Assembly: GCA_965207225.1 (NCBI GenBank)
Contig: CBDBLV010000005.1
Coordinates: 2,012,974 to 2,076,973 of the forward strand
From: Dehalococcoidia bacterium
Lineage (GTDB): Bacteria; Chloroflexota; Dehalococcoidia; Plut-88900
DNA length: 64,000 nucleotides
Direction of reading: 5' to 3'
Under the pieces are notes generated by a model. That model was not told where the DNA came from and made no database searches. It worked only from the letters and a program-made list of their open reading frames with translations. Within the stretch, counting starts at the first letter, position 1, and every line of letters begins with the position of its first letter. Shown one piece after another: positions 3,131-31,946 of the stretch. Both the position numbers and the translations under genes were made by a program.

Positions 3131-3172
3131 TGCGGCGGCCCAAACCGATAGGCCGCACGAAACCGCACCGAG

Positions 3173-3790: not shown

Positions 3791-3793
3791 CCG

Positions 3794-5202: not shown

Positions 5203-5220
5203 GTGAAGGGAGAGAAAGCA

Positions 5221-14327: not shown

Positions 14328-15985
14328 GACCCGCGGGACTGGAAGCTCAGATCATCCGCATCCTGGCCGACATGCCCTACCTCAATCGCCGGGAGATGGT
14401 CCCGGTCACGGGCCGGTCCAAGGGCGCGGTCCACGAGGCCGTAGAGAGACTGCAAAATGGCGGCCTCTGCGACTCCGTGCTCCACGCCGTCGATCCCTTT
14501 TCCCCTTCCCGCAGGTTCCACCTCACCGGGGCGGGGCTGCGCAGGCTTGCAGATGAGGACGGGATTTCGCCGGACAACCTGGTGCGTACACACCCCCTCT
14601 CCGCCGAGTGGCGGCGAAGCCTGATGGAGCGCATGGACGCCCTGGCTTCCATATACCACGTCGCATCTCTCGCTTCCGACGTTGCCTACCCCCTGCGTTT
14701 CCGCTGGTACCGCTCATCCAAGCTGGACGCGGGTATAGAACTTCCCGACGGCAGGACCGTCGGCATCGTGAGGCAGGGACTCACCGCCGACCGCTCGGTC
14801 TTCGCCCAGCGCCTCTGGCGACTGAAGGACGAACCCATGCCCGGAGTCGTCCTCGTCCTCACGATGGACGCCGTCCGTCTCAGGCACGCCCGCAGGATGC
14901 TCTCGACCACAGACGTTCCGTCCCTCCTGGCCGTCGAACGCGAGACGGTCATGGCCGACGTAGACGCCCCGATCTGGACTCCGGCCCAGGTCCACGCAGC
15001 CGTGAGCCTGCGCTATTCGTTGGACAGGACCGACCCCCGCGGCGCGTTTCCGGGGGAGCCGCAGCCCGGACTGGCGTCGGTCCCTGCCGACCTGCCCGTC
15101 ATGGGAACGGTAGCCGACATGGCCGACCACATGCTGCCCGTGACGCTCAGACCCGCCGAGAAGCGCGCCCTCGACCTGGTTTTCGACTGGCCCTGGATCG
15201 CCCTCGGCGAACTCGCCGGTCTGTTGGGCGTCTCGCCCCAGAGGGCTTCCCAGATCGTCAATCCACTGGAGGGCTTCAGCCTCGTCGTCAGGCCCCGCGA
15301 AGCGGAGGGACGGCTGGCCCTCACCGACCGGGGACTGGCCCTCCTCGCCCGCAGGGACAGGACCTCGGTGGCGGCGGCGAGGAGGAGATTGAGCGTCGCC
15401 CCGGAGGACGCCAAAGGGCCTTTCGAGTGGCGCAACCTCACCGGCAGCAGGAGCCGCCAGCTTCTCAGGAACATCGAGCACACCGAGGCCGTCCACGTCT
15501 TCCTGTCCGCGCTTGCGGCCCAGGCCCGGCACCTGGGCTGGGAGATAGCGCAGCTCGACCCGCCCAGGAGGGCGTCCCGCCACTTCCGCCACGACGAACG
15601 GATGCGCGCCGTCTACCCCGACGCCTTCGGCGTCCTGCGCAGGGGCGAAGAGACGTGGGCCTTCTTCCTGGAGTGGGAGCGAAGGGCCGTTCGGCCCTCG
15701 ACGATGGCGACGCGGCTCGCCCCCTATCTGCGCTACTACTCGTCCCACAGGCCCACCGACGACCACGGGGCCAGACCCGCCGTTCTCATCGTCTTCGACG
15801 ACGACATCGCCGCCACCCACTTCCTGCGCGTGGCGAGGGAGCGGATGCAGGCCAGCCGGGTCACGGTCCCCCTGTGGGTCTCCCACAAAGAAGCCATCGA
15901 CTCCCTGGGACCGCTGGGACGCGCCTGGCGCACCCCGGACGCCGCCTGGGAGCCGCCCCAGTCCCTGCCGACGGAAGCGAAATGA
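14324..15985 (+). CDS. Replication-relaxation family relaxase with duplicated architecture
   Basis: YPDAFG...FFLEWER motif after a wHTH; degenerate N-terminal repeat; downstream of the coupling protein. Confidence 0.75.
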   Translation: MRPAGLEAQIIRILADMPYLNRREMVPVTGRSKGAVHEAVERLQNGGLCDSVLHAVDPFSPSRRFHLTGAGLRRLADEDGISPDNLVRTHPLSAEWRRSLMERMDALASIYHVASLASDVAYPLRFRWYRSSKLDAGIELPDGRTVGIVRQGLTADRSVFAQRLWRLKDEPMPGVVLVLTMDAVRLRHARRMLSTTDVPSLLAVERETVMADVDAPIWTPAQVHAAVSLRYSLDRTDPRGAFPGEPQPGLASVPADLPVMGTVADMADHMLPVTLRPAEKRALDLVFDWPWIALGELAGLLGVSPQRASQIVNPLEGFSLVVRPREAEGRLALTDRGLALLARRDRTSVAAARRRLSVAPEDAKGPFEWRNLTGSRSRQLLRNIEHTEAVHVFLSALAAQARHLGWEIAQLDPPRRASRHFRHDERMRAVYPDAFGVLRRGEETWAFFLEWERRAVRPSTMATRLAPYLRYYSSHRPTDDHGARPAVLIVFDDDIAATHFLRVARERMQASRVTVPLWVSHKEAIDSLGPLGRAWRTPDAAWEPPQSLPTEAK

Positions 15986-16307
15986 ACGACGCAGGGAGCG
16001 TCGCGAAAACTCCCGCTCAATACCCGATAGGAGATGGAAAGCCGATGCGTTCACCGGATAACGATATAGCAAGAGGCCCCCGGAGGAGCGGAGGACGGAG
16101 CGCCGTCCGGCTCGACGCGGCGGCCCTGGGAGACGGCTCACTTCGGTGATCACCTCCCGGAACCGGCCCGCCGGGGTCGATACAGACAGACCCGGTCCCA
16201 TGTCGAAGTCGGCGCGTGGGGAGCGACCGCCCTCCGGTCGCATCCGCCGCCGGATGCACATGGCCTTGGGAACAACAACCCAAAGCTTTATGACATGGAG
16301 GATAGAC

Positions 16308-16598
16308 ATGACCAACATCGATCACATCGACGGATGGAGCGAGATGGAGCCCCTTCAGGGCGCCGACATGCCCGAGGACTTCCCCCAGCGGCTCGTGCGC
16401 CTCAAGGAGGCCAGCGGCCTCTCCTGGCGCGGCCTGTGCAGGGTCACCGGCATCGACTACAAGCTGCTGCGAAGGTGGCTCAAGGGCTGGGCGCCCAGCG
16501 GAGGCTCCATGCTCACCCTGGTCATCTTCGCCAACCGCATCGGATGCCTTCCGATCCTCCTGGGGGAGGAGCTACGGATGACCCACTTCAGGAGCTAG
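16308..16598 (+). CDS. XRE-family HTH protein
   Basis: FPQRLVRLKEASGLSWRGLCR; GGAGG RBS. Confidence 0.75.
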   Translation: MTNIDHIDGWSEMEPLQGADMPEDFPQRLVRLKEASGLSWRGLCRVTGIDYKLLRRWLKGWAPSGGSMLTLVIFANRIGCLPILLGEELRMTHFRS

Positions 16599-16764
16599 CC
16601 GGCACCCCCCGCCGGCGCCCTAACCGGCGCATCGGCGGCGCGGCGGGGTAGGACACCACAACGCCGCCGGGCGCTCGCACCCATCCGTCCGTGCCCGGCG
16701 GCCACCCAATACACCTGTAACGAGAGGCCAGCGGCCCAACGAACCGCCGCTGAGATTAGGCAAC

Positions 16765-16983
16765 ATGAAAGACACCAATAGAGAAGATACGAGGAACCGG
16801 CAAAAGAAGAGGCCGGGGAGGGATGCTCCCGAGTCATCCTCCGACAGGCCGGTGGAGTCCTATACTCCTCAGCAGCGGAGGACGATACGCAAGGGGCTGC
16901 GCATCCTGGCCAAGGTCGCCGTCCGCGCCCACATGCGCAGGAACGCGGCTCACTCAGAGGATGACGGCGAGGGCAGGCGGTGA
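16765..16983 (+). CDS. Small basic protein (possible recombination accessory factor)
   Basis: 72 aa ORF upstream of the TA pair and integrase; function inferred from position only. Confidence 0.5.
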   Translation: MKDTNREDTRNRQKKRPGRDAPESSSDRPVESYTPQQRRTIRKGLRILAKVAVRAHMRRNAAHSEDDGEGRR

Positions 16984-17079
16984 ACGTCCCGCCCAACCTT
17001 GTCCCCGGCAGACTCGTTGGAGATGGCCGCGTGAAGCTAGCATCTTGGCATAGCACGAAAGCCGTGCTATTATGTACTT

Positions 17080-17373
17080 ATGATTGTCTCATTCAGAGAC
17101 GGCGGTACAGAGGACATCTTCAACGGGCAATCCACTCAAGCGGCCCTGCGGGCATGTCCCATGCCGATATGGGGAGTGGCTCATCGAAAGCTTGACCAGA
17201 TCGATTCCGCCTCCGTTCTGGGAGACCTCAGAATACCTCCCGGCAACCGCCTGGAACGGCTGGCCGGAGATCGAAGCGGGCAACACAGTATTCGCGTCAA
17301 CGACAGGTATCGAATCTGCTTCACGTGGACACCTGCCGGACCCGCCGACGTCGAAATCACCGACTATCACTGA
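17080..17373 (+). CDS. higB: HigB/RelE-family toxin
   Basis: LRIPPGNRLERLAGDRSGQHSIRVNDRYRICF. Confidence 0.92.
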   Translation: MIVSFRDGGTEDIFNGQSTQAALRACPMPIWGVAHRKLDQIDSASVLGDLRIPPGNRLERLAGDRSGQHSIRVNDRYRICFTWTPAGPADVEITDYH

Positions 17374-17387
17374 AGAGGAGAATGAGC

Positions 17388-17747
17388 ATGGTACGCATTC
17401 CCACCGATCGAGAGCCTACGCATCCGGGCGAGATGCTTCTGACGGAGTTCCTGCTGCCCCTCGGAATGACTCAGCGCGACCTGTCCAATGCCATTCACGT
17501 GCCCTATCAGAGGGTCAACGAAGTCGTCCGAGGGAAGCGGGGGGTCACGCCAAGCACCGCCCTGAGGCTCTCTAGGTTCTTCGGCACTTCGCCCGGCTTT
17601 TGGATGAACCTGCAACTCCGTTGGGACCTCTACCACGCCGAGCGTTCCGAGGCTGAACAGATCGAGGGCATCCTTCCGCGTGAAATGGTCAGCGCGCTTG
17701 GGGAAGACACGGGTTCGATGACGACGATGCCGGGTGTTGCAGGCTAG
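17388..17747 (+). CDS. higA: HigA antitoxin
   Basis: PTHPGEML...FWMNLQLRWDL. Confidence 0.92.
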   Translation: MVRIPTDREPTHPGEMLLTEFLLPLGMTQRDLSNAIHVPYQRVNEVVRGKRGVTPSTALRLSRFFGTSPGFWMNLQLRWDLYHAERSEAEQIEGILPREMVSALGEDTGSMTTMPGVAG

Positions 17748-17791
17748 TAGTGGCCCACGGGAACGACAGGAAACAGGAGGAGGACTCACAG

Positions 17792-19723
17792 ATGAACAAT
17801 AGAAGCGACTACACCCCCGTGGCCCTCTACGCCAGGGTCTCCAGCGACAGACAGGACGTGGACCTGTCCGTGGCCGCACAGCTGCGGGCGCTCAGGGAAT
17901 ACGCCCATAAGAACGACTACGTGGTCGTCCGCGAGTACGTGGACGAGGCCGAGAGCGGGCGCGTCGCCGACCGCCCGGAGTTCCGCAAGATGATCGACGA
18001 GGCCGCCAAGCCCGAGGCCCCGTTTAGAGAAATCCTTGTCTGGAAATTTAGTAGATTCACCAGAAAGCGCGAGCACGCCGTCGCCTTCAAGTCCATGCTC
18101 AGGCGAAAAGGCGTCCGCGTCGTCTCCATCACCGAGCAGGCCGACGACACCGCCACCGGCAGGCTCCTTGAGGGAATCATCGAGTCGGTCGATGAGTTTT
18201 ACTCGGAAAATCTTGCGGAAGAGGTTCGCCGTGGGATGCGGGAGGCCGCTTCCAGAGGCTTCTGGGTCGCCAGCCGGACGCCCTACGGCTACAACCGCGT
18301 CATGGTGCAGGACGGAGCCAAGAAGCGGCCCACACTGGAGATCGACCCTGACACTGCTCCCGTCGTCAAGCGCATCTTCGACATGGCCGAGTCGGCCACC
18401 GGGATGACCGAAATCACCCGCACACTCAACTCAGAGGGCATCGCCAGCGCCACCGGCAAGCTCTGGTCCAAGAACGGCGTCCACTTCATCCTCAGAAACG
18501 AGGTCTACACGGGCACGCTGCTCTGGGGCACTACAGGGAAGGTCAAGTCCGACCCCGTACGCATAGAGAAGGCGTTCCCCGCCGTCGTCTCCAAGGCCCA
18601 ATTCAACCGCGTCAAGCGGCTCATGCGCTCCCGCGCGCCGAAGAGGACGCACCCTCGCAGGGTGGGAAGCTCCTACCTGCTCAGCGGGCTGGTCAGGTGC
18701 AAGTCCTGCAACAGGGCGCTCTCAGGCCAGGACGCCAAGAGCGGCCAGTTCGCCTACTACGTCTGCCAGTCCATCATGAAGCGGGGCAAGAACGCTTGCA
18801 CGACCCCCAGGCTCAACGCACGACGCTTCGAGGAGATGGTGGTGGAGAGGATACGGGAGAACGTCCTCACCGAGTCCAACATCACCGAACTGGTCAAGAT
18901 CGTGGACGAGGAGATGGATGGGGTGGCAGCGGAGCAGCGGCAGAAGCTGGAGACCATCGAGGCCGAGCTTGATGAGGTCAAGCGCAAGCTGGGCCGCGTC
19001 TGGCACCTGGTGGAGAACACCGACCTCGACATGGCCGACGCCTCGGAACGCATCAGGGAGCACCGGGAGCGTCAACAGTGCCTTGAGGACTCGGCGGCCG
19101 AGGCCAGGACCATCCTCTCCCAGCGCAGGGAGGTTTTGGACGACGTGGAAACCATCGCCACCTATGCCCAGGACATGAGCGAGTTCCTGAAGGAGAGCGA
19201 ACTGACCGAGCGCAGGGCCTTCATCGAGTCTTTCGTCAAGGAGATCGTCGTCATGCCCGACAACGCCCTCCTCCGGTACACCATCCCCATGCCTCAGGAT
19301 GGACCGGTAGGAGGGAAAACCGCCGAGGAGATGGACCTGAACGGCTCGGTTCTGTCTACCGTCAAAAATGGTGGGCCGGACTGGACGAAATCAAGAACCG
19401 ATGCCGACTCCCGCCTCACTCCGTCCCTGGGCATGGGCACCGTGTACGTCAGCGTCGCCTCGTCTTCCACCACCTCGATAGCCTCCACGAAGTTGCGGAT
19501 GAGGGCCTTGCGTTCGGGGATCGTCCCCTCCCTCAGGAACTCCCGGAAGTCCGCCACGTACTCCGCTATCTCCTCCGTGTCGGGAAGGGCAACCCGCCGC
19601 CGCTCAAGCTGGGTCTCGGCGTCCTCTCTCGCAGCCTCAAGCTGCTCCTCACGGTGCCGCAGGGACATGATGCGGGGCGACAGCACCTCCAAGGTCAGGT
19701 CGCTGGTCTCGATGGCCTCGTAG
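17792..19723 (+). CDS. Large serine recombinase A; residues after ~19374 are read-through into the antisense of integrase B
   Basis: YARVSS catalytic motif, recombinase domain, LLSGLVRCKSC Zn ribbon, coiled coil. Confidence 0.93.
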   Translation: MNNRSDYTPVALYARVSSDRQDVDLSVAAQLRALREYAHKNDYVVVREYVDEAESGRVADRPEFRKMIDEAAKPEAPFREILVWKFSRFTRKREHAVAFKSMLRRKGVRVVSITEQADDTATGRLLEGIIESVDEFYSENLAEEVRRGMREAASRGFWVASRTPYGYNRVMVQDGAKKRPTLEIDPDTAPVVKRIFDMAESATGMTEITRTLNSEGIASATGKLWSKNGVHFILRNEVYTGTLLWGTTGKVKSDPVRIEKAFPAVVSKAQFNRVKRLMRSRAPKRTHPRRVGSSYLLSGLVRCKSCNRALSGQDAKSGQFAYYVCQSIMKRGKNACTTPRLNARRFEEMVVERIRENVLTESNITELVKIVDEEMDGVAAEQRQKLETIEAELDEVKRKLGRVWHLVENTDLDMADASERIREHRERQQCLEDSAAEARTILSQRREVLDDVETIATYAQDMSEFLKESELTERRAFIESFVKEIVVMPDNALLRYTIPMPQDGPVGGKTAEEMDLNGSVLSTVKNGGPDWTKSRTDADSRLTPSLGMGTVYVSVASSSTTSIASTKLRMRALRSGIVPSLRNSRKSATYSAISSVSGRATRRRSSWVSASSLAASSCSSRCRRDMMRGDSTSKVRSLVSMAS

Positions 19724-20940
19724 AGCTTCCCCAGACGCCTCTGCACGTCCGATAGCTCCGCCTCGACTGACTCCAGCCTGCCGGACAGCTCTCCAGCCAT
19801 GGCGTCTATCTCCTCCGCCACCAGTTGCACCAGCTCCACGATGGTCTCCTCGGTCAGGATGCGCTCCCGTATCTTCTCCACCACGAAGTCCTCGACCTTG
19901 GGGGCGTTCAGGTAGCGGGCGCTGCACGTCCCCGCTCCCTCCCTGAACAGCGTCCCGCAGATGTAGTAGGCGAACTGCCCGCTCTTGGCTCCCTGGGCCG
20001 AGTAGGGCCTGCCGCACACTCCGCACTTCAGCAGCCCGCTCAGCAGGTACTGGCTCCCCACTCTACCGGGCCTCTGCACCTTCGGCGCACGCTCGCTCAT
20101 CGCCTGCTGCACCTCGTCGAACAGCTCCCGCGACACCAGGGCAGGCCACGCTCCCTCCACCCGCACCGGGTCCTGGGCCTTCTCGTTCTTGCCCTTGAGT
20201 CCCCATACGGCTGTTCCCGTATAGGCTTCGTTCCTCAGCACGTAGTGGAGTCCGCCCTTGTACCAGCGCTTCCCCCGGTTGGTGACGCCCCGGTCGTTCA
20301 GCTCCCTACACAGCTCCTTGAGGCCGTGACCGCTCAGGGACTTCTCGAATATCTCCTTCACTACAGGAGCGGTGGCCGGGTCAACCTCAAGTGAGGGGCG
20401 CTCCTTCGCCCCGTCCTGTACCTTGATCTTCCTGTAGCCGAAGGGGGCCTTGGAGCCGAGGAAGAAGCCTCTCGACGCCGCTTCCCTCATCCCCCTGACA
20501 ACCTCTTCCGCAAGACTCTCCGAATAGAATTCATCCACCGACTCGATGATGCCCTCCAGCAGCCTGCCGGTGACGGTGTCGTCGGCCTGCTCGGTGATGG
20601 AGATCACCCTGATGCCCTTGCGCCTAAGCTGGGACTTGAACGCGACGGCGTGCTCCCGCTTGCGGGTGAAGCGCGAGAATTTCCACACCAAGATGACCTC
20701 AAAAGGAGCCTGGGGCTTGGAGCCCTCCTCGATCATCTCCCGGAACTGGGGCCGGTCGGCGACCCTGCCGCTCTCGGCCTCGTCCACGTACTCCCGTGTC
20801 ACGGAGTAGCCGTTGGCCTTCGCATATTCCTTGAGCGCCCGCAGCTGGGCGGACACGGACAGGTCCACGTCCTGCCTGTCGCTGGACACCCTGGCGTAGA
20901 GTGCCGCCGCCGTCAGCGGCTGTAGGTGCTGCTTCTTCAT
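19294..20940 (-). CDS. Large serine recombinase B, paralogue of A
   Basis: YARVSS, LLSGLLKCGVC; 3' end crosses the att centre. Confidence 0.93.
   Translation of the reverse strand: MKKQHLQPLTAAALYARVSSDRQDVDLSVSAQLRALKEYAKANGYSVTREYVDEAESGRVADRPQFREMIEEGSKPQAPFEVILVWKFSRFTRKREHAVAFKSQLRRKGIRVISITEQADDTVTGRLLEGIIESVDEFYSESLAEEVVRGMREAASRGFFLGSKAPFGYRKIKVQDGAKERPSLEVDPATAPVVKEIFEKSLSGHGLKELCRELNDRGVTNRGKRWYKGGLHYVLRNEAYTGTAVWGLKGKNEKAQDPVRVEGAWPALVSRELFDEVQQAMSERAPKVQRPGRVGSQYLLSGLLKCGVCGRPYSAQGAKSGQFAYYICGTLFREGAGTCSARYLNAPKVEDFVVEKIRERILTEETIVELVQLVAEEIDAMAGELSGRLESVEAELSDVQRRLGKLYEAIETSDLTLEVLSPRIMSLRHREEQLEAAREDAETQLERRRVALPDTEEIAEYVADFREFLREGTIPERKALIRNFVEAIEVVEDEATLTYTVPMPRDGVRRESASVLDFVQSGPPFLTVDRTEPFRSISSAVFPPTGPS
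19346..19401. other. att junction between elements A and B
   Basis: Symmetric TCGGTTCT...AGAACCGA and CGTC...GACG around the central GG. Confidence 0.85.
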
Positions 20941-20983
20941 GTCGTCCTCCTCTGCAATCTTCTGTACTTAGGGGAGGCCAGCC

Positions 20984-22030
20984 TTAGGCCAGCCCCCAGG
21001 GGTAAGATTCACCTTTGACATATGAAATGGAACCGTCCAACCTCACCGTGATTACGGCGTCGAAGGCCGATAGGTCGCACCCATCCCAGGCTGCGGACTC
21101 CGTGCCACCGATAGAATCTACGATGTCCACTAGTAAGAGGCAGAAGCGAGAGTATTCTGGGCATTCGGCTCGCTTACCTGCTTTGTCGTTGACCTCCTCC
21201 TGTAAAACTTCACCGACCTTGTCGTTCGTTATGAAGTTCCGGAAGACATTGTTCCGTCCCCTAGCGTCCAGTTCTCGATTCACCTCCACATAAGAGACCA
21301 TGCCAGATTCTACGCGTGCAACCTCAACTGCCCATTCCTGCCCTTCCACGAGGAGTTCAAAGTCGGGAAAGCTATTCCCGAGAGGTTCGTATCGATATTT
21401 CAGGTCTTCTTGTGAGATGCCGAAACGCGAACATAGGTCAACACGGAGTGAATGGAGAGCGAAGTGCTCCATGTCTTCCTTGGAAGCATACGCGGGCGAG
21501 AATCGAAGCCCGTCCAACCGGTCGCTTTCTACGAGACGCTGTACGGCAGGGTCCGTTGGGTTGACCAGGCCGATGACGATGCTGTCTTGACTCATGTATT
21601 CGTCCTCGAAGAGGTCTACCCTGAACGCGAAGGTTTCCTTCATGTGGTGAACGCTCAATAGTTTTCGATTGTCGGTAGACAAGGGAAGATGAGACAGGAT
21701 TGAGGTCAACTTCTCCCGCTTCATTGGGTGATAACGGATGAGTACGCTATCGCATCCATGGACCCAGTCCATGTCATTCTGGGAGATGATGTGTGACACC
21801 TCTTCCCTCAGAAATCCAAGAGTCAGTTTTCTCCCGTTGGCTGGGGTATGTGGGACAGACTCGGAGAGATCTTTGGATTCTAAGGCGGCCCTCAAAGAGT
21901 TCGACGCACGCCGGTACTCATTGACGGTGCTTCCCTGTTTACCCGGAATCAAGACAAACTGATACCAGGGCAACTTCTGGTATTCAGGGTCTTCCTTCTT
22001 CACATACTTGGTCGGAAAGGCGGATGTCAT
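20984..22030 (-). CDS. Hypothetical protein with C-terminal PD-(D/E)XK-like motif
   Basis: FPDFELL...WAVEVAR; lower GC than its flanks. Confidence 0.6.
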   Translation of the reverse strand: MTSAFPTKYVKKEDPEYQKLPWYQFVLIPGKQGSTVNEYRRASNSLRAALESKDLSESVPHTPANGRKLTLGFLREEVSHIISQNDMDWVHGCDSVLIRYHPMKREKLTSILSHLPLSTDNRKLLSVHHMKETFAFRVDLFEDEYMSQDSIVIGLVNPTDPAVQRLVESDRLDGLRFSPAYASKEDMEHFALHSLRVDLCSRFGISQEDLKYRYEPLGNSFPDFELLVEGQEWAVEVARVESGMVSYVEVNRELDARGRNNVFRNFITNDKVGEVLQEEVNDKAGKRAECPEYSRFCLLLVDIVDSIGGTESAAWDGCDLSAFDAVITVRLDGSISYVKGESYPWGLA

Positions 22031-22076
22031 GAAGTTTTCCTAATCTCGCTGGGGGTTCCGAATCGTGGTTCGCAAC

Positions 22077-22409
22077 TTAACTCACCAGGACGCCTATCGT
22101 GGTGCCAAGGGCGCTGGCGATGCGTACCAGGGCCGAGGCCGATCCGGGTTTCAGCCCGCGCTCAATCTCGGAGAGGTACCCTGAGGCAAGGCCGGTCCTC
22201 TCGGACAACTCCCTCAGGGTCATGCCCTGGTGGTTCCGAAGCGCCTGGATGGGACCCTTCCCCCGCATGATGTCGAGAGCGACCTCGTGAGGGACGCGCA
22301 CGCCGTCGTCGGCGTCCTGGGCAGCCAGCATGTCCTCAAGCTGGCTGTTGCGCTCGATGAGAGCGTCGTACTCCCTTCGAGTCAAGGTTACGGTCTGTTC
22401 GCTAGTCAT
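22077..22409 (-). CDS. XRE HTH antitoxin
   Basis: ALRNHQGMTLRELSERTGLASGYLSEIERG; overlaps the toxin stop. Confidence 0.85.
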   Translation of the reverse strand: MTSEQTVTLTRREYDALIERNSQLEDMLAAQDADDGVRVPHEVALDIMRGKGPIQALRNHQGMTLRELSERTGLASGYLSEIERGLKPGSASALVRIASALGTTIGVLVS

Positions 22410-22659
22410 AAGCCTCCCTCCTGTGTCGAACTCTCAGGATTATGAGGGTTGAGGGCTCGCCATGTTCGGTGGCGAAGATGACGCGGTGTTGGCCGACCCG
22501 CAACCGGCTGTAGTCACTGCCGGTCAGCGCAGTCACCTGTCTGGCGAGAGAGGCGGGGTTCTCGGCATATTGCTCAACCTTGCCGATGATGCGCTCCCTG
22601 TCCCGCGCGGCGAGACGGCGCATATCCCTGATGGCCCGCGTCCCCCATTCGATTTGCAT
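22402..22659 (-). CDS. RelE/ParE-family toxin
   Basis: RLRVGQHRVIF...VRHRREAY. Confidence 0.85.
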   Translation of the reverse strand: MQIEWGTRAIRDMRRLAARDRERIIGKVEQYAENPASLARQVTALTGSDYSRLRVGQHRVIFATEHGEPSTLIILRVRHRREAYD

Positions 22660-22888
22660 TCCCTCATACACACCCTCTATATTCGCAAATAGAGAGCAGT
22701 GAGTCAAGGGCGCACCCACGCGGGCAGCGTCTCTAGTTTCAGCTAGAGTGATTTCCGAAAGCCGCCTCATCCGCCACTTTCGCAGGACGGTCAGCAACCG
22801 GCGCAGTGCTTGAATCTCGTATTTCGCTCGCTCTGGTTGCATACCCTCACCCCAGGCAGCATTCTCCCTTCAAACTGAGACACTACCC

Positions 22889-23323
22889 TCACGCGACCAG
22901 CCGCCACGTGAGCAGACCAACGACCACGAGCAGCACGACAACGGCCAGGCCGAGCCTGACGGCCAACCGCCTCATTCGTCTGCGGGCATCGCGCTCCTTC
23001 TCGTACTTCTCCTCCATCTCCTCAAGCGCCTGCCGGTCGGCGGCTGCGGCGTACACCGCCTCGTCCCGCTCCCGCTCCAACGCCTGCGCCCGCCGATCCA
23101 GCTCCAGCAGCCTCCGCCCAAGCTTCCCCTCACGTGCCAGAGCCCGGCGCAGCAGCTCCTCGTCGCTCACCCGGTCCGGCCCCTCCATCCGCACGTTGAC
23201 CCTCCGGCCCTCCCTGCGCACCTCGACCTCTCCCCGCCGGATCATCCGGTCGAGGGTCGAGATGGAGACCTCCATCTCCCGCGCCGCCTCCGCCTTCGCC
23301 ACCCAGCGCACCCGCTCAGCCAT
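22889..23323 (-). CDS. HTH, coiled-coil and C-terminal TM protein
   Basis: AEAAREMEVSISTLDRMIRRG; hydrophobic tail. Confidence 0.7.
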   Translation of the reverse strand: MAERVRWVAKAEAAREMEVSISTLDRMIRRGEVEVRREGRRVNVRMEGPDRVSDEELLRRALAREGKLGRRLLELDRRAQALERERDEAVYAAAADRQALEEMEEKYEKERDARRRMRRLAVRLGLAVVVLLVVVGLLTWRLVA

Positions 23324-23756
23324 CGCTCCCGTCCTCGCCCTGCCGCCTGCGCCGCCGCCACCGGCTGAACAGGCGCAGCCCACCGCCCTCGGCGTCGTCT
23401 TCCTGCTCCCGCGCCGCCTCCAGGGCCTCCACGCGCTCCGTCAGGTCATCCACGAGGTTCCTGAGATCATCCACCTCTCTGATCGCCTGCCGCATCCTCC
23501 CCTCCAGCCTGTCCAGGGGCGTCGTCCTCTCCCCATCGGGATCGTCCAGGCCGGCCATGAACCGCTGCACGGCCAGGGTCATCTTGCTCGTCAACCGCTC
23601 TTTGCTCAGGGCCAGGGCCACCGTCTTCCGGTTCACACCCAGCAGGGCCGCCGTCCTGCGCTGACCCTCCCGCTGGACGAGGTACTCCACGACCCACTTC
23701 TGGTCGGGTCGCCCGTCTACGGCCTTCGATTTCATCTTCGACTTCCCAGAGGTCAT
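23316..23756 (-). CDS. HTH regulator, paralogue of 1866..2723
   Basis: GQRRTAALLGVNRKTVALAL plus coiled coil. Confidence 0.7.
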   Translation of the reverse strand: MTSGKSKMKSKAVDGRPDQKWVVEYLVQREGQRRTAALLGVNRKTVALALSKERLTSKMTLAVQRFMAGLDDPDGERTTPLDRLEGRMRQAIREVDDLRNLVDDLTERVEALEAAREQEDDAEGGGLRLFSRWRRRRRQGEDGSDG

Positions 23757-24286
23757 CTTCGTCCTCTACCGAGATGGGCCGTTTCTGCAATTTTCGGTGG
23801 AACCGGCCCTTGACAGCGACCGGTCACATTTTTCGGCCAAACCCCCGAAATGTTGCATAAATCCAAACCTGCGTGGCCCGAAATGTCCGCTCCTGACCAT
23901 GCCCCCATTTCGCGTCATGCACCCCCACCTCAATTCCTGCAATTTCCGGTGGGCCGCCCTGGGCCAAAGACGCCGCCGACGCGCCGGTTTTGCTCCTCAT
24001 AGACGCTTCAGACCCGCATCCGTACCTACATCCCCCATGATCGGCTGACCGGTCAGGGTGGTAAGAGTGCAATTCCGGCGTCTCCGGAGCGCGCCCTAAC
24101 TTTAGCACAGCTTCTCCCCAACCTGCATTATTTGCCGTTGACCGGTCGAGGACGTTGCAGCCCGTTTCGTAGCTGAATCAGGGGAATATGACCGGTCTCG
24201 GCTATTTCGAGGCCCCGCCGGAGGTACAACTTGTACCGTTTTGCGCCCCCCAGACGCCAGGGAGGGCAGACAGCGTTGCATCGACG

Positions 24287-26116
24287 CTATCTATGTCCCC
24301 TCCTATTGGACGCCTCTACAGGACGGGTGGGACGCATCCGGTGGTACAGCGGGTCGTAGACGTAATCGCTCAGCTGGGACAGCCTCAGCCGGGGGGAGGA
24401 CGGCGCCCACAGGGGGCGCCAGGACTCCCCCAGTATCCCCGTGGTGCTAAGCACAGGGATGCAGGACACCAGGACGGGCAGCGACATCCGGTGCATCCGG
24501 GCGGCGGTGCTCATGTAGGTCTCCTCCACCTCCTCACTGTCCACGACGAACAGCGTGACCGGGTACGGCGGCAGGTCCTCTTTGTGCTCGTTGGACCAGT
24601 AGTAGTCTTCGTAGGGGTCCAGTCGTGCCATCACTCCCCTGGGGTGACGGGCTCTGAGTTCGTGCTCAAGGTAGAAGGGCACAGGATGGCCCTCGGCGAC
24701 AAGATGCCCAACGGCGTCGGGGGCGATGGCGGAGCGGCCCCAGTTGTAGGCCCGGTCGGACCTGGCGGTGGGGACAAGCCATACAAGCTCACTGTCGGGA
24801 TCGGAACGGGTCTCAGATGCAAGCTGCGAGAGGAACCAGGTGATGCCGTCCGTGTGCCTCGTCTGCCTCGCCCACGTCTCGATACGGTGGCCTACGTGCC
24901 GAGGCCGTCCCTCTTTGTCCGTGGTGCGCTCCGTGCTCCAGATACCCCGCGTGGTGGGCAGCTCGGCCCGGTCCCGGTGGGTCACGTAGCGTATCCCCTC
25001 GTCGGACAGCGTGTAGCGAACCTCGCCCCGTTTGCCCCGGCGCTCCACGAGACCCCAGGTCTTCACCAGGCCGTGCATCATCTGGCTGACCCTTCCCTCG
25101 GAGACGCCCAGCCAGGTCGCCAGGTGCTCGCGGGGGATCATCGGGTGGTCGGTGATGAGGTCCAGCGTGCGCTTCTCAGCGGGGCTGAGGCCGAAGGCCG
25201 GCGCAGCCTGCGTCATCCGCTCAGGATCGGGCAGGGAAGCTCGCTTACGCTCCGGCGACATGGTGAGGGGTCTTCGTCTCCTGCCAGCCGTGCCCCGGGA
25301 GATGACATCTTCCAACGTGTGGAAGACGTTCCCAACCCACCCCGTGGTCTCCTGCCAGACCCGGCGGTTTCGTCGTTCTAGGGCGGTCCTGGACTCTACG
25401 GCAACGAAGCAGTCACGCAGATAGACCTGCTCGCAGAACCTCCCCGTCTGCCTCCGCTCCCAGACGCTGGGAACCAGGCTGAGAATGACATCGGGGCGGC
25501 GGCTGGAGTCGTAGTGGGCCAAGGCCCGTAGCCGGTCGCGGAGGGAGCGCCTGCGTAGGGCCAGGCCCTGGCGCACCACGCCGAAGTCCCGCCCGTCGTG
25601 GAGGGTGATGGTGGCGTCGAACCGGCCCCTGCGGTGGAACTCCACGCGGGACCGCAGGCCGTCCGAGCCGGGGGACATCGTGGCGGCGAGACGGTAGACG
25701 GCGGCCACGGCGTCCATCCTGCGCAGGAGCAGCGTCAGCCACTCCCTGGACATGGGGTAGGCCCGCACGAAGTCCGAAAGCGTGTCGTAGTCCAGCAAGT
25801 CGGCTGTCTCACGTATGCCCTTCGCCGTCAGGTAGTATCGTGCGCTTGACGGCAGGTGGACGGTGCCGTGGGTGACTCTCCCGACGATGCCATCGTCCAG
25901 CAGGCCGGTCAGGGCGCGATGGACGGTCGCGTGCGGCTCGCCCAGGACAAGCGCCAGCTCCGTCGATTCGACGAAGGGCATCCGGGCAAGTGCGTCGAGC
26001 AGCTGGTGGTCAGTAAGGACCATAGCCCCACGGTAGCGATTGAGCGTCCTGGTGGGCAACTGGGACGTGTCAGCGCCGCGCTTGGCACCGACAGACTGCT
26101 GAGAAGCCTGACTCAC
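24287..26116 (-). CDS. Replication-relaxation family relaxase B (start may be 26023)
   Basis: Colinear paralogue of 14324..15985; APDAVG...FYLEHE. Confidence 0.75.
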   Translation of the reverse strand: MSQASQQSVGAKRGADTSQLPTRTLNRYRGAMVLTDHQLLDALARMPFVESTELALVLGEPHATVHRALTGLLDDGIVGRVTHGTVHLPSSARYYLTAKGIRETADLLDYDTLSDFVRAYPMSREWLTLLLRRMDAVAAVYRLAATMSPGSDGLRSRVEFHRRGRFDATITLHDGRDFGVVRQGLALRRRSLRDRLRALAHYDSSRRPDVILSLVPSVWERRQTGRFCEQVYLRDCFVAVESRTALERRNRRVWQETTGWVGNVFHTLEDVISRGTAGRRRRPLTMSPERKRASLPDPERMTQAAPAFGLSPAEKRTLDLITDHPMIPREHLATWLGVSEGRVSQMMHGLVKTWGLVERRGKRGEVRYTLSDEGIRYVTHRDRAELPTTRGIWSTERTTDKEGRPRHVGHRIETWARQTRHTDGITWFLSQLASETRSDPDSELVWLVPTARSDRAYNWGRSAIAPDAVGHLVAEGHPVPFYLEHELRARHPRGVMARLDPYEDYYWSNEHKEDLPPYPVTLFVVDSEEVEETYMSTAARMHRMSLPVLVSCIPVLSTTGILGESWRPLWAPSSPRLRLSQLSDYVYDPLYHRMRPTRPVEASNRRGHR

Positions 26117-26236
26117 AAGGAGTCACCTATGGCTAGTCGTGCTCGTAGCCAGCCCGCGCATGTCGTCTACGCGTCTCTTAGTTGAAGGCTTCTAGACGTT
26201 GAATCACCGCTACTTGAAGTATATACTTCCGAGTAG

Positions 26237-26443
26237 TTGGAAGGGAGGAGCAGCTTGAAAGGTACTGAAAATGGACAACGTGGAACTTTCCTGGTGACGG
26301 CGTATAGGTGTCGTTGTGGACACGAGTGGGTTCCAAAGAAACTGCGCAGCGCGGAACGTCCACGGGTTTGCCCAAAGTGCAAGAGCGCCAACTGGGACAG
26401 GCCCTATCAATTTCGGAGGGGAGGTGCTCCTAGCCAATCATGA
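26237..26443 (+). CDS. Small Zn-ribbon protein (start may be 26255)
   Basis: CRCGHEW...CPKCKSANW; overlaps the MTase start. Confidence 0.6.
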   Translation: MEGRSSLKGTENGQRGTFLVTAYRCRCGHEWVPKKLRSAERPRVCPKCKSANWDRPYQFRRGGAPSQS

Positions 26444-27363
26444 GTACTCTTGAAGCACCCAACTCAGCCGACTTGGTGACTGTGGACAAAGGCCACATTC
26501 TTCTTGGAAACGCATTCGACTGGCTGGAGAAGGCCGAACGAAACTCGATTCACGCCGTGGTGACCGACCCGCCGTACGGGTTAGTTGAGTACTCGCCATG
26601 TCAACTCGAAAAGCTCCGCAACGGCAACGGAGGGGTTTGGCGAATACCTCCGGCGTTCGACAACGCCGCCCGCAAGCCCGTTCCTAGATTCACAGTGCTA
26701 AATGACGACGACAAGGAGCGTCTTGAGGCGTTCTTTGATCGCTTTGCTGCCCTGCTGATGCCGGTCTTGGTTCCCGGCGCTCATGTCTTCATAGCGACCA
26801 ACCCTCTAGTCTCCCACTTCGTCTATCTGCCCTTCGTCAGGGCGGGCTTCGAGAAGCGGGGAGAGATCGTCCGTGTGGTTCAAACCTTGCGTGGTGGTGA
26901 CCGTCCCAAGAATGCACACGTTGAGTTCTCCTCTGTCTCGGTCATGCCCCGGTCCTGCTGGGAACCGTGGGGCCTGTTCCGCAAGCCATGTGAAGGACGT
27001 GTCCAAGACAATCTGCGCAAATGGAAGACAGGGGGGCTTTCGCGTGTGTCCGACACTGAGCCATTTCGGGATCTCATTCAATCCTCTCCCGCTCGGGGAC
27101 TCGAAAAGAAGGTAGCCCCTCACCCGACGCTAAAGCCTCAAGACTTCATGCGGCAACTTGCACGAGCTTCTCTTCCGTTGGGCGAAGGCGTAATCCTTGA
27201 CCCGTTTATGGGTTCTGGCTCTACGATCGCGGCAGCTGCCGCTTGTGGTCTGGACAGCATAGGTATCGAGATCGACCCGGAGTACTTCAAGATGGCGCGT
27301 ACAGCTATTCCTCAGCTAGCGAAGTACGTCCCTAACGGAAGCAGGCATAATGGTCAGAAATGA
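26440..27363 (+). CDS. N4/N6 DNA methyltransferase, beta class
   Basis: TDPPY, HPTLKP, LDPFMGSGST. Confidence 0.92.
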   Translation: MSTLEAPNSADLVTVDKGHILLGNAFDWLEKAERNSIHAVVTDPPYGLVEYSPCQLEKLRNGNGGVWRIPPAFDNAARKPVPRFTVLNDDDKERLEAFFDRFAALLMPVLVPGAHVFIATNPLVSHFVYLPFVRAGFEKRGEIVRVVQTLRGGDRPKNAHVEFSSVSVMPRSCWEPWGLFRKPCEGRVQDNLRKWKTGGLSRVSDTEPFRDLIQSSPARGLEKKVAPHPTLKPQDFMRQLARASLPLGEGVILDPFMGSGSTIAAAAACGLDSIGIEIDPEYFKMARTAIPQLAKYVPNGSRHNGQK

Positions 27364-27958
27364 CTGGTTCGATTCATCGGTGCCGCTTCCTCCAGGTCTA
27401 ACTGTCGGCGCGATCCGCAGGTCTATAGACTATGTCGAGCGTGAGCTCGCGGAGTTGGTGGAAATCTACGACGAGCAAATGAACGTATTCAGCGCAATTG
27501 TCGGAATCTTCGGTACGCGAGCACTCGACTCGGTCAGCAACTACGAGAAGCACAGGAACCTCGACACCGCCCAGCAACGGTTTCCCGATCTGCGTCGAAG
27601 AGGGTCCGGTTCGAACCCCACGGCCAACGACTCATTGGAGAGTAAGGCAAGCAAGAGGCCGTGGGCGCTGCAATCGCATTTCGACCATCCTGGATGGTAT
27701 ATCGTCTGGCGATATCTTGTTGATCCTACCGAGACGTTAGAAGCTGGCAGGCCGGTCATTGTTTGGCGCGTGGACGTCGCATTCATCGATAAGGAAGATT
27801 GGAAGTACGAATCGAGCAGCGCAGGACCGGCGGGCGGAGGACGTACTCACACCTTCGGCCTGAATCGTCCGGCAACAAAATTGCGGGGCAAGGCTGTCTA
27901 TCGACGGGGCGATGTCGCCCTAGTTGGTGGGAAGCCGATCCCTGCGAATGGCGACTAG
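27350..27958 (+). CDS. Putative type II restriction endonuclease
   Basis: RFPDL...LESKAS; overlaps the MTase. Confidence 0.6.
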   Translation: MVRNDWFDSSVPLPPGLTVGAIRRSIDYVERELAELVEIYDEQMNVFSAIVGIFGTRALDSVSNYEKHRNLDTAQQRFPDLRRRGSGSNPTANDSLESKASKRPWALQSHFDHPGWYIVWRYLVDPTETLEAGRPVIVWRVDVAFIDKEDWKYESSSAGPAGGGRTHTFGLNRPATKLRGKAVYRRGDVALVGGKPIPANGD

Positions 27959-28160
27959 ACATATTGGATCAGGTGCCGAAGGTGGATGACCGAAGATGTC
28001 GCCGCGCTTTACGCCCAAGCCTAAGTTCGCAGCCATGACTTCGTGCACCAAGTTTAGGCCACCTTCGTCTCTCCTGGAATCTGGAAGCAACATCCGCCCG
28101 ACAATGGGCATCCATCCACTTCCACCTAGCCTTGCCACTATCGGACCAGGAGCCGCCCCA

Positions 28161-30284
28161 TCACTCGCAGACCACGCCGTCGTTGTCGGCGTCGTTCATG
28201 TACTCGTATGCGGGATGTCCACGGCGCACAGGAGCAATGCCGTGGTTGCGCGCCTCCGCGCAGGTGATGCGGCCGTTCCCGTTGTCGTCGTACAGCTCTA
28301 GGGCGTTGTTGACTGCTCCGTCTCCTCGCGCAGTAGCGGGGGTCGGTGTAGGGGCGGGAGCTTCTCGCACAATCATCTCAGTGGACGTGCAGCCCGACAA
28401 GATGCTCTCCAGGGCGTCACGTTCGCTTTCGTCGATGGTCAGGTGATATCTCTCCTTGACCTCGACGACGCGGTTCGCAAACCAGCAATGATTCAGGTCG
28501 GGGACCCATTCGGCGACATCCTTGCCGCTCTTCTGGTGGCGATTCACCGAGGGACTGGCCAGGGTGAGATTGATCAGGTCTGAGGCAAACCGTCGTCTCG
28601 TTGCGGAGTCCGCTGCGCAGAGGCCGCTGTCGTGGGCCTCGGAGCGTGCGACGATATGCTCGATATCGGTGTCCGACGTGCTATCGAACCAGCTTCCCGT
28701 GTATGGGCCGTAGACGATGCCTCCCATGCTGTCAACGATTTCTTGCTCCACGGACTGGGGATAACGGTAGTCGTCAGCGTCATATGTCGAGCAGCGGTCT
28801 TCTGGCGCAACCACAAGCCCGCGCCAGGTACCCAGACGATTGTGGGCTTCTGAACCAGTATTGAGGTCAATTTCAAGGACGCAGCCGGTCTTGAAGTACT
28901 TGTCGGTATCGAGAATCTCGACGTAGAACTGCCCTCTCGCGTTGTCTATGGCAATGACGTCCGACAACTCCCCCGACACTCCGCTCAGGCGAGTCCATGA
29001 GCAAGAGTCCAGCGCCCCAGTTCCCGCCATCCCTGCATATACGCCAGGTCGGATGTCTCGTCCTACGATGTGCGTGCCGATCTCAATCTTTGACAACGGC
29101 TCATCTGGTGTGGGCCAGTCATCAAGGTGGGTCATGGAGCAGCCGGTCTTGAAGTACTTGTCGGTATCGAGAATCTCGACGTAGAACTGCCCTCTCGCGT
29201 TGTCTATGGCAATGACGTCCGACAACTCCCCCGACACTCCGCTCAGGCGAGTCCATGAGCAAGAGTCCAGCGCCCCAGTTCTCGCCATCCCTGCGTATAC
29301 GCCAGGTCGGATGTCTCGTCCTACGATGTGCGTGCCGATCTCAACCTTTGACAACGGCTCATCTGGTGCGGGCCAGTCATCAAGGTGGGTCATGGAGCAG
29401 CCGGTCTTGAAGTACTTGTCGGTATCGAGAATCTCGACGTAGAACTGCCCTCTCGCGTTGTCTATGGCAATGACGTCCGACAACTCCCCCGACACTCCGC
29501 TCAGGCGAGTCCATGAGCAAGAGTCCAGCGCCCCAGTTCCCGCCATCCCTGCATATACGCCAGGTCGGATGTCACTACCGACCTCGTACGTTCCAGGATC
29601 GAATCCAGCTTGGATGGTGGTCATCGGCTCCGGTGTTTCCGTGGGGGTTTGAGTCGATGCTGGTGTCGGTCTCGGTCCCGGATTGACAGTAGGAGGGATG
29701 CTCGTAGCGGTGGGGTCAGGCTTCGGTGTCGATACTGGCTCAGAAGTCATAGAATCGGAAGTAGTTACTTCTATGCTGATCTCTTGGCCTTCCACCCCTC
29801 CTAAACCAATTGCTCTTATGCGGTACTTGTGCTCTTCGCCGCTTCTGAGTCCCGCGTCGGTAAACATTGCCTCCGATACGAAGTGATGCTCGTCAAGGCC
29901 CAAGAATACGTCTCGGGTCACTTCATAACGTTCGACAGTAACCACATCGCTGTTTACTGGAGGTTTCCATTTGAGCGTGATTGAGTTCTCAGTAACACTG
30001 GCTACCTCAAGGTTCTGAATGACACCTGGAGGGGCGGCAGCAGAGGTGGGAGTGTCAGTCGATGCGGGCGTTGGCGTCACCAAAGGTGCCGACGTGGGGG
30101 TGTCAATCAGCGTGGGTGTTGGAGTTGCCGTAGGTGCCGGTGTGGAGGTGTCGATCGGCGTAGATTGCTCGTCGCTACATGCGGCCAGAGACATGACGAA
30201 AAGGACCACTACGAGGCTGATTAACATCACCGGGCGGGCTCTCTCCCGTGACCGTGTACGTATCGACGCCTCAAGCCTCTTCAT
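28161..30284 (-). CDS. Lipoprotein: FN3, three 86-aa repeats, DUF1524/HNH-like nuclease, Excalibur Ca-binding domain
   Basis: LAAC lipobox, DIEHIVA...N..S.N, DADNDGVVCE. Confidence 0.85.
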   Translation of the reverse strand: MKRLEASIRTRSRERARPVMLISLVVVLFVMSLAACSDEQSTPIDTSTPAPTATPTPTLIDTPTSAPLVTPTPASTDTPTSAAAPPGVIQNLEVASVTENSITLKWKPPVNSDVVTVERYEVTRDVFLGLDEHHFVSEAMFTDAGLRSGEEHKYRIRAIGLGGVEGQEISIEVTTSDSMTSEPVSTPKPDPTATSIPPTVNPGPRPTPASTQTPTETPEPMTTIQAGFDPGTYEVGSDIRPGVYAGMAGTGALDSCSWTRLSGVSGELSDVIAIDNARGQFYVEILDTDKYFKTGCSMTHLDDWPAPDEPLSKVEIGTHIVGRDIRPGVYAGMARTGALDSCSWTRLSGVSGELSDVIAIDNARGQFYVEILDTDKYFKTGCSMTHLDDWPTPDEPLSKIEIGTHIVGRDIRPGVYAGMAGTGALDSCSWTRLSGVSGELSDVIAIDNARGQFYVEILDTDKYFKTGCVLEIDLNTGSEAHNRLGTWRGLVVAPEDRCSTYDADDYRYPQSVEQEIVDSMGGIVYGPYTGSWFDSTSDTDIEHIVARSEAHDSGLCAADSATRRRFASDLINLTLASPSVNRHQKSGKDVAEWVPDLNHCWFANRVVEVKERYHLTIDESERDALESILSGCTSTEMIVREAPAPTPTPATARGDGAVNNALELYDDNGNGRITCAEARNHGIAPVRRGHPAYEYMNDADNDGVVCE
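28881..29573. repeat. 258 bp tandem repeat, about 2.7 near-identical copies
   Basis: Units start at 28881, 29139 and 29397. Confidence 0.95.
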
Positions 30285-30314
30285 TTAGACCTCCAACCTG
30301 AACCTCAACTGAAA

Positions 30315-30365
30315 GGTTCTTGATTTTGTCAAGTCTGGTGGACCGATGCTTTCTGGAACGGCCCT
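30315..30365. other. att junction between element B and herA
   Basis: GGTTCTTGATTTTGTCAAGTCTGGT-GG followed by herA sequence. Confidence 0.85.
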
Positions 30366-30566
30366 TGCACCAACTTCGGCGACTATACCGAACAGATCTT
30401 GGTACCCTTGAGGCACTCTGATGAAGCTGCCGACCTGCCCCACCTTATAGGTCTGCCCCCCGAATATGGACAAACCCGAGTCAATTGATTTAGCGAGGTG
30501 GACACTAAGGGTCGCGCCCGATACGACTGCGATAGTGCCAAGATAGGTAGGATCACGACTAAGCAT
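30340..30566 (-). pseudogene. herA: HerA ATPase, N-terminal 75 codons only
   Basis: VGQVGSFIRVPQGYQDLFGIV HAS-barrel-like start; overlaps the SIR2 stop; ends at the att centre. Confidence 0.8.
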
Positions 30567-31808
30567 TTGGGGACTCCGCTGCAACTTGTGAGTCCTTGCT
30601 GCCCGCCGTATCCTCTGTTTCATCTTGCGCTGGGGAAGTAAGTCTATGTGCCTGCGTCAATGCTAGGAACCTCGCAAGCATAGCAAAGTCTCCTAGGAGA
30701 AACTCTCCAGCATGCCCATCGGAAGAGGGCTTCCAGAACGTCTGCTGAATATCTTGCCATTCCTCATTGGGGGTCGCACCTGACACCCACTGTCCCTCAA
30801 TGCTATTGATGATGGCACCATCACGGGCGTAAACGCTTAGGTTGGGACGAGACCTCGCCATAGAGATGACCGTCTGTTCTTCATCAAGCACTCTGTATTG
30901 AAACGCGAAGATAGCTGAATGAGCATTGGCTGCCATTGCTTCGTCCAGCACAGCACAGATGTGAGAATCAAAGAACGAGAACCCAGTGCATATGAGGAGG
31001 GTGTCTGGAGTCGTCAAGAATGTACGTAGCCTTTCAAAAAGAGCGGAATACGGAAGCCGTGATACCTGGTCATATTTGAGGTGATCAGGATAAATCAACC
31101 CCGTCGCTTCTCTCCTTCCGGTTCTAACCACCGTATCTCCAGACACTTCCCAGCCAAGAGAACCGTGAAGCTTCCACAGTAAGGACCATCGAGCCGGAAG
31201 GTCTTCGTTGGACACACTTGCGGGGTCAAAAACGGCCTATATGAACCACTAAAACCATCAAAGTAAGGGACTCTGGCCCGCTCAAAAGCCTCTTCCATCA
31301 GCAGATCGTAGTTTGGAGTAAACACCTCTATGGAATGTTTCCGACGAGTACCTGCAATCCAGGAGGCGACTTCCGAATAGGGATTAGGAGCATTCGGCAA
31401 GCTAGCACTGACACATCTTCCAATCTCATCACAAATGCGCTGGGCCATTGAATCGTAGGCGGTCGCATCCAAGCCATGTACGCATGAGCTTCCGATAGCC
31501 TGCGCGAGTCTCCGAACCTGTGTTAGGACGGTTTCAATGTTGATGGGCTCCTTTAGTTGGGGCTTCAGTTTGTCGATAACCTGGCGGTCTGTTTCACTCA
31601 ATGCCTCAATAACAGAGTCGGTCAAGCCAGCTACGTCAGGCACTAAATCGTGACCACCGTGCTCAATAATCTGATTGTCTTGGTCTACACGAATGGCAGT
31701 CGGAGCACCAGCACCGATCAATATGCCGATACGTTTCCGACCCTGAGCGAGTGTCTGTCTCAGGTCGATCATATATCTATTCGGATTGTGTATAGTTACG
31801 TTCTGCAT
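30559..31808 (-). pseudogene. SIR2-family protein, frameshifted
   Basis: LIGAGA, FTPNYDLLME, KLHGSL, GFSFFDSHI; one T missing at 31228-31232 (T5 where PFFD needs T6). Confidence 0.85.
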
Positions 31809-31946
31809 CGCTTAAGCTCGAACACTAGGCAAGGGAATCACCCCCGAAAGCTTCTGAGGGCAACCCTATCGTCTGCGCTAGGGGAAAGAGACTAGCCAGC
31901 CAGCTTCTATCCCTGCCAAGACCTTGCCTCTTCAGTTCTTGTTGTA

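Follow-up and report, generated by a model that had tools for sequence, protein, structure and literature searches.

A crossover site inside a large serine integrase gene of Dehalococcoidia elements, and a conserved C-terminal tail predicted to be translated only when the element ends are joined

The DNA analyzed here is a 64,000-nucleotide stretch (the window; G000:C5:2012974-2076973) of a metagenome-assembled Dehalococcoidia genome, whose assembly comprises 4.03 Mb in five contigs, with a completeness of 92% and a contamination of 8%. The window contains element B, an 11-kb integrative element that is probably mobilisable and carries a large serine integrase gene, intB, at its left edge. We found that the 2-bp crossover of B lies within this gene, 17 codons before the stop, so that each integration separates the last 17 codons from the gene and strands them at the opposite end of the element, and that integrated and free forms encode different C-termini. 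Because the crossover falls inside the open reading frame (ORF) and the detached tail is conserved as protein, the integrase has state-dependent C-termini. On balance, we favor the explanation that the attachment site attP is located in the 3' end of the integrase gene and that a tail present only in the joined form modulates the integrase.

At the left end of B, intB (19375-20940, minus strand; 522 codons inside the element) encodes a B-type large serine recombinase (Pfam Resolvase 7e-33, Recombinase 8.9e-25, Zn_ribbon_recom 1.8e-15). Its last codons contain the P arm of B (19375-19399, minus strand), next to which lies the crossover dinucleotide, GG at 19373-19374 (CC in the sense of intB). 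The right end of B reads GGTTCTTGATTTTGTCAAGTCTGGT-GG (30315-30341) and consists of the P' arm (30315-30339, plus strand) and the second crossover dinucleotide GG (30340-30341). Around this GG core, the arm at 30315-30339 matches the reverse complement of 19375-19399 at 21 of 25 positions; the chance of at least 21 matches in 25 at one fixed place, given the base composition, is about 3e-9. The arms and junction positions are consistent with short att sites that have imperfect inverted-repeat arms and a 2-bp crossover. A transfer RNA (tRNA) scan of the window found no tRNA gene, and hence the arms are not tRNA genes.

When the two ends were joined by coordinates in a script, intB continued in frame to give a 540-residue IntB ending in SVLDFVQSGPPDLTKSRTFQLRFRLEV (also written SGPPDLTKSRTFQLRFRLEV) before the stop. 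The crossover, CC on the integrase strand, lies in Gly-Pro codons; the attP arms encode SVLDFVQSG and PDLTKSRT, and beyond the distal arm follow nine codons of the pattern F-x-L-x-F-x-L-x-V and then the stop. In the integrated state, the intB ORF extends to 19294 and IntB, then 548 residues long, ends in SGPPFLTVDRTEPFRSISSAVFPPTGPS, read from the antisense strand of intA, the integrase gene of the neighboring element A. The detached tail (30285-30339, minus strand) comprises the DLTKSRTFQLRFRLEV codons, the stop, and the last base of the core-spanning Pro codon. Its TAA (30287-30285, minus strand) is directly followed by the ATG (30284-30282) of a lipoprotein gene, and a GGAGG (30294-30290, minus strand) lies within the tail codons, five bases before that ATG. 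These three features, namely the 21/25 inverted repeat around GG, the in-frame continuation of the integrase to the tail stop, and the abutting TAA-ATG of the nuclease lipoprotein with its ribosome-binding site inside the tail, had been proposed in an earlier sequence-only reading of the stretch, and all were reproduced.

To describe the tail across copies, we assembled a set of 23 distal arms of B type (20 distinct) taken from the same genome and from 11 metagenome loci. All collected tails read PDL[TI]KSRT followed by F-x-[LIV]-x-[FLIV]-x-L-x-[VLI]. Tail positions 9, 11, 13, 15 and 17 were hydrophobic in all 20 distinct copies, each by means of 2-8 different codons, with Leu15 invariant through five codons, and positions 10 and 16 were hydrophobic in none, position 12 in 15% and position 14 in 30%. 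The stop stood at codon 18 in 19 of 20 tails, as TAA, TAG or TGA, and the codon behind it occurred in 16 variants. Conservation with a period of three bases, exchange of synonymous codons where residues are hydrophobic, and a stop that keeps its place strongly suggest that the tail is a translated, selected peptide. In 5 of the 11 metagenome loci the tail was located directly 3' of a tRNA gene (CCACCA end) on the same strand, so that no protein reads into it there; the joined attP, in which the tail is the end of the integrase, appears to be the sole context that gives such tRNA-adjoining tails a reading frame. The sister A family displays the same split, its distal arms reading P-x-LT[VI][DG]RT[VI]FE[LM][RW][LM]G and, after two further positions, a stop. 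Conservation of TKSRTFxLxF-type tails at distal element ends, which the earlier reading had offered as a check on its proposal, was thus borne out beyond the att arm in 20 distinct copies. A scan of viral contigs for the distal arm gave 0 matches, and the literature searched, in which few subscription journals were covered, contained no description of a serine integrase with a conserved distal tail.

The C-termini of related integrases point in the same direction. Contiguous, in-frame P and P' arms were present in one of 401 Dehalococcoidia genomes (G127), where the joined frame ends in SVLDFVRSGPPDLTKSRTFTLRFRLLV (PPDLTKSRTFTLRFRLLV) and a stop. Close relatives of IntB derive from metagenome-assembled genomes of Dehalococcoidia and other Chloroflexota, several of them from sponges. 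We sorted the 120 closest database relatives by C-terminus: B-like tails were found in three, one of which has 540 residues, and a sister tail, TVDRTIFEMWLGGL, in 21, several of 540 residues; antisense-tRNA-like endings occurred in 10 and other endings in 14. In remote relatives (31-56% identical), the C-terminus is mostly an antisense-tRNA peptide, such as GWTRT..INSRMLHH, and at 8 of 9 homologous loci in small Dehalococcoidia genomes a tRNA 3' end abuts the 3' end of the integrase gene. These remote endings and tRNA-adjoining loci suggest that placement of the crossover near the gene end is old and general.

The sequence itself shows that the full 540-residue integrase can be made only where P and P' adjoin, be it on a circle or at the junction of tandem elements, and that the integrated gene makes an integrase whose C-terminus comes from the flank. 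As to function, the tail would act as a short C-terminal motif on a flexible linker and give the circle-encoded integrase a property without counterpart in the integrated form, of which control of integrase activity or lifetime in the integration phase would be the likeliest. In an AlphaFold2 model of a natural 540-residue relative (87-row alignment), the mean predicted local distance difference test score (pLDDT) was 81, and residues 505-540 scored 28-36. With pLDDT below 50 over all of residues 505-540, the att arms are predicted to encode a flexible linker, and the nine conserved residues resemble a short motif at the terminus rather than a docked strand of the monomer; the suggestion in the sequence-only reading that the tail is a structural strand was not supported by the model. 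Matches to solved structures covered the integrase body only and gave nothing on the tail. The tail may be a degron, may bind a partner as a peptide, or may act only within the tetramer on DNA. In addition, the arms can pair in the joined messenger RNA (mRNA), the natural relic in G127 folding at -43.5 kcal/mol (z = -2.3), and mRNA arm pairing can thus be a second state-dependent feature.

Several observations weigh against a functional, state-dependent tail. AlphaFold2 gives no docked position for the tail. The joined site of G127 is a relic, in which only the last 48 integrase codons are kept. Of the 120 closest relatives, as many as 72 take their C-terminus from the opposite strand of a converging integrase gene, and such very common integrated copies with arbitrary tails mean that the tail-less form is at least tolerated. 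The circle joint of B with its own 13 central letters was found in none of the contigs of four sequencing runs (X1, X2, X5, X7) that we compared with the window; contigs lose rare forms, and hence the failure of the predicted circle junction to appear carries little weight. One X2 contig joins 30334 to 19381 with 13 other letters between, and is the site of a sibling element, not that of B. Finally, the long-range arrangement described below rests on one metagenome assembly with 1.5-kb repeats.

One alternative is a neutral overlap, in which attP would sit in a disordered, tolerant C-terminal extension, the isoforms would behave alike, and the distal segment would be kept for another reason, for instance as leader or ribosome-binding region of the next gene or as an extended recombinase-binding site. 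The predicted disorder of the tail and the frequency of arbitrary C-termini among relatives are in keeping with this explanation, and the available portions of McMurdie et al. (PMC3146451) name such a "trivial explanation" for the recombinase DsiB. The downstream genes provide a further argument for it. A gene lies at -1 to +28 nt of the tail stop in 5 of 21 distinct tails, all of them lipoprotein genes of this genome, and the last codons of these five tails (LEV and stop) hold the GGAGG of the lipoprotein gene. The five genes (window 28161-30284, C4:9961, C5:1054267, C5:1944388 and C5:1973014) encode proteins of 343-857 residues with one common signal peptide and different bodies. However, in three more tails an ORF of at least 60 residues starts 8-23 nt after the stop, and in 13 of 21 there is none within 80 nt; the marks of translation, that is, three-base periodicity, synonymous turnover and the fixed stop, also hold in those 13 tails and behind tRNA genes, and the nine conserved codons extend beyond the 25-bp arm. 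We consequently regard a neutral overlap as a rather unlikely account. Coupling to the downstream gene is not a general part of the design, so that the proposed rewiring of a cargo operon was supported for the 5/21 subgroup and not for the family.

The sequence-only reading had assumed an active switch at this very copy, in which B would excise from herA as a circle, restore a strand or degron of IntB, and transfer the nuclease gene from the herA operon to the integrase operon. The joined frame, the TAA-ATG and the ribosome-binding site in the tail are indeed real, and B shows the complete arrangement of its family (tail, cargo, Replic_Relax, integrase). In runs X1 and X2, moreover, the right part of B (25956-30341) has about 2.6 times the contig depth of the herA flank (30342-32000). 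The left unique part of B (20880-22212), however, has single-copy depth in both runs, and hence the extra depth does not represent a whole-element circle; the exact joint was missing from the contigs of all four runs, and the tail is not modeled as a docked strand. On the right side, the proposed fusion of the tail to a herA stub was confirmed: in the chromosome, the HerA N-terminus runs in frame into the tail in one ORF (30285-30623, minus strand), the HerA part of which (stub, 30342-30623, minus strand) accounts for 95 residues (PADLOC HerA E=1.4e-6, model positions 7-68 of 576). The left border of B (19373), on the other hand, adjoins the 3' end of the converging intA and not herA, the left site being a hybrid of the P arms of A and B rather than a herA half-site; the array thus reads intA, the oppositely oriented intB, the tail and the herA stub.

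The missing part of herA (positions 80-573 of the 576-position model) was found at C5:1990344-1991876 (plus strand), in inverted orientation and at a distance of 53 kb leftward from the stub. There it continues the reading frame of a third B-type integrase gene, intC, with SVLDFVQSGP joined to VSETGRW. This cognate half-site with its B-type P arm is so oriented that recombination between the two herA half-sites is predicted to invert the segment, not to excise it. With B lying between the herA stub and intA and the other herA half 53 kb away and inverted, the present copy is not a simple excisable insertion in herA, and the herA-tail fusion is incidental, the usual neighbors of tails being tRNA genes or other elements. 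An active switch at this copy is accordingly unlikely; what the sequence-only reading called excision-dependent is not supported for it, and the change of integrase C-terminus between states is retained on the strength of the crossover inside the ORF and the conservation of the tail as protein.

PADLOC placed HmaB and HmaC behind the herA remainder and HmaA and SIR2 beside the stub in the window, so that the gene set of a SIR2-HerA/Hma locus is present in broken form. A single defense operon (HmaA, SIR2, HerA, HmaB, HmaC) appears to have been cut at the att core in herA, with its halves (window 30285-35489 and G000:C5:1990344-1999202) inverted relative to each other. Upstream of herA, the target operon contains SIR2 and the HmaA helicase (30559-35489, minus strand; PADLOC HmaA E=0). 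SIR2 consists of two overlapping ORFs (30559-31808) corresponding to positions 2-188 and 190-391 of 399 in the PADLOC model, and the window copy is apparently frameshifted, because a contig of X7 has one extra A behind 31227. This contig, from another sponge metagenome and with 34 other letters in 1662 bases, matches herA and SIR2 up to 30339 and then diverges, which fits an empty site in a relative. Two histories may account for the arrangement. The attP junction of two tandem B-type elements could have used herA, on the same chromosome, as a secondary site for recombination in one step; alternatively, B could have inserted normally in herA, followed by homologous recombination between inverted integrase genes. 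Identity between intB and intC is evenly 81-94% in 150-nt windows, which fits recombination and its absence alike. The gene intC (C5:1988772-1990337) and the copy at C5:1960450-1962015 share 1502 identical nucleotides, after which 10 of the final 64 positions differ, a 3' mosaic indicating that exchanges near integrase 3' ends occur.

That the converging integrases and the split herA are mis-joins across repeated integrase genes in a metagenome assembly is very improbable, for although the genome has 12 B-type and 19 A-type integrase copies, two B-type genes identical over 1502 nt, 8% contamination and uneven depth, all seven converging A-B pairs join exactly at the core, the same antisense-integrase ending recurs in the 72 relatives from many other assemblies, and the herA break lies at the core, in frame, on both sides.

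The wider genome illustrates how these elements stack. Its 12 full-length B-type integrase genes encode proteins 86-100% identical to IntB and its 19 A-type genes proteins 61-100% identical to IntA; IntA and IntB are 59% identical. Seven of the 12 B-type genes are in convergent pairs with an A-type gene, as in the window, and all seven join exactly at the core; of 12 solo A-type genes, six meet a tRNA 3' end on the opposite strand (Ile, Ala, Lys, Val, Met and Gln; examples are C1:177682-177758 and C5:1036504-1036580), the tRNA remaining intact after insertion because the arm supplies ACCA. The junctions in the seven pairs and at the tRNAs all break at a GG/CC dinucleotide. The 3' end of B-type integrase genes (GTCCAGTCCGGCCCACCA) matches a tRNA 3' end at 17 of 25 positions, and this likeness may be why A-type elements land beside B-type integrases. 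tRNA targeting by serine integrases seems to be common in Dehalococcoidia. Some B-type tails (C4:9961, C5:145322, C5:1944388) adjoin a third kind of arm, AGTTCGCAGT, and the C-termini of many database relatives are read from the antisense strand of a third integrase type (TVLRT); there seem to be three or more families of elements that insert into one another.

Element A, about 29 kb long, covers window positions 1-19372 and G000:C5:2003436-2012973. Its integrase gene intA (17750-19372, plus strand; Pfam Resolvase 5.7e-34, Recombinase 6.6e-21, Zn_ribbon_recom 4.7e-12) forms the right end of the element, and its ORF extends to 19723 through the antisense strand of intB. The P arm of A, GGTTCTGTCTACCGTCAAAAATGGT (19348-19372, plus strand), also precedes the tRNA 3' ends at the six solo A-type integrases. 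The distal arm lies to the left of the window, at C5:2003436, and a search for it in the window with up to 3 mismatches found only known sites. Element A may be conjugative, as suggested by a coupling-protein-like gene (11796-14327) followed by a Replic_Relax gene (14324-15985). An IS21-family element is present in two copies (8604-10639 and 55204-57239) with IstA-like and IstB ORFs equal in size, the first of which sits within element A.

Between its ends, B carries on the minus strand a 348-residue ORF (20984-22030), a helix-turn-helix protein (22077-22409), a ParE-like toxin ORF (22402-22842), a 146-residue ORF common to B-type elements (23316-23756), and a Replic_Relax/MarR-type protein (24287-26116; Pfam Replic_Relax 6.4e-11). 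The last of these is a core gene of B-type elements, copies with 74-87% identity adjoining other B-type integrases. The cargo consists of an N6_N4 DNA methylase (26440-27363) and two unassigned ORFs (together 26440-28301, plus strand), followed by the lipoprotein (28161-30284, minus strand), which has fn3, GmrSD_C nuclease and Excalibur domains in Pfam and is single-copy in the genome. Among the B ORFs scanned with Pfam there was no second Resolvase-domain ORF. Both IntA and IntB have the domain set of large serine recombinases (Resolvase, Recombinase and Zn_ribbon_recom, all above the Pfam cut-off), and an AlphaFold2 model of the relative P0039 is consistent with a coiled-coil insertion, its long helices (residues 346-484) separating the strands of the zinc ribbon region from a final pair of strands (485-499).

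The central idea had already been put forward in 2011, for DsiB of Dehalococcoides, and the present data add evidence and breadth, not a new principle. According to the available portions of McMurdie et al. (2011, PMC3146451), dsiB of the ssrA islands always overlaps attL and has no stop inside the island, and it may be fully functional only on a circular element or beside an island with a 3' fragment. DsiB comes from the same bacterial class as IntB and is likewise a serine recombinase of about 540 residues, at the edge of islands that can lie in tandem, and in B, too, the integrase gene overlaps the left att site without a stop inside the element. The target there, however, is the transfer-messenger RNA gene ssrA, whereas the targets here are tRNA 3' ends, the sites of other elements and, for this copy, herA; the portions of PMC3146451 at hand describe divergent C-termini and do not mention a conserved distal tail; and a second, small recombinase, DsiA, has no counterpart among the Pfam-scanned B ORFs. 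Integration at ssrA together with DsiA, which defines the ssrA islands, was thus not found here.

The earlier reading had also pointed to mycobacteriophage switches with attP inside a gene, an apt comparison in the light of what PMC3694055 reports in the sections available. In the integration-dependent immunity of phages BPs and Brujita, attP lies in the repressor ORF and the principle was demonstrated experimentally; the viral and prophage proteins differ at the C-terminus, and the part removed is a functional tag. The split gene there, however, encodes a repressor, the integrase is a tyrosine recombinase and the degradation tag is proven, whereas in B the serine integrase gene itself is split. 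In archaeal "suicidal" integrases of the SSV1 type, as portrayed in the accessible part of PMC8371274, the att site lies in the integrase gene, integration splits the gene, and the complete integrase has been discussed as its own directionality factor. These are tyrosine recombinases, said there to be restricted to archaea, and their catalytic domain is separated by the split; IntB, in contrast, is a serine recombinase that loses only 17 codons, with its Pfam-matched domains staying together, and is therefore not divided into inactive N- and C-terminal parts.

How a serine integrase chooses between integration and excision is an active question, to which the known answer is a separate directionality factor. 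In the B family, which is abundant in Dehalococcoidia (Chloroflexota) genomes, many of them from sponges (sponge metagenomes are also among the sequencing runs that contain this stretch), two element states encode two integrase isoforms, and the part in which they differ is under clear protein-level selection in many copies. The design seems to be common in Dehalococcoidia, whose genomes can hold dozens of such elements, stacked on each other and targeting many tRNA genes; in the window, these elements broke a SIR2-HerA/Hma defense operon. It is a speculative proposition, with a small chance of being right, that the detachable tail serves an entire clade of serine integrases as an intrinsic switch of directionality or lifetime. 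If it is true, only the excised or entering element would make the full integrase, tuned for integration or short-lived, the integrated element would make a tail-less enzyme with another competence (e.g., excision) or stability, and the state of the DNA would do part of the work that a directionality factor does in phage systems.

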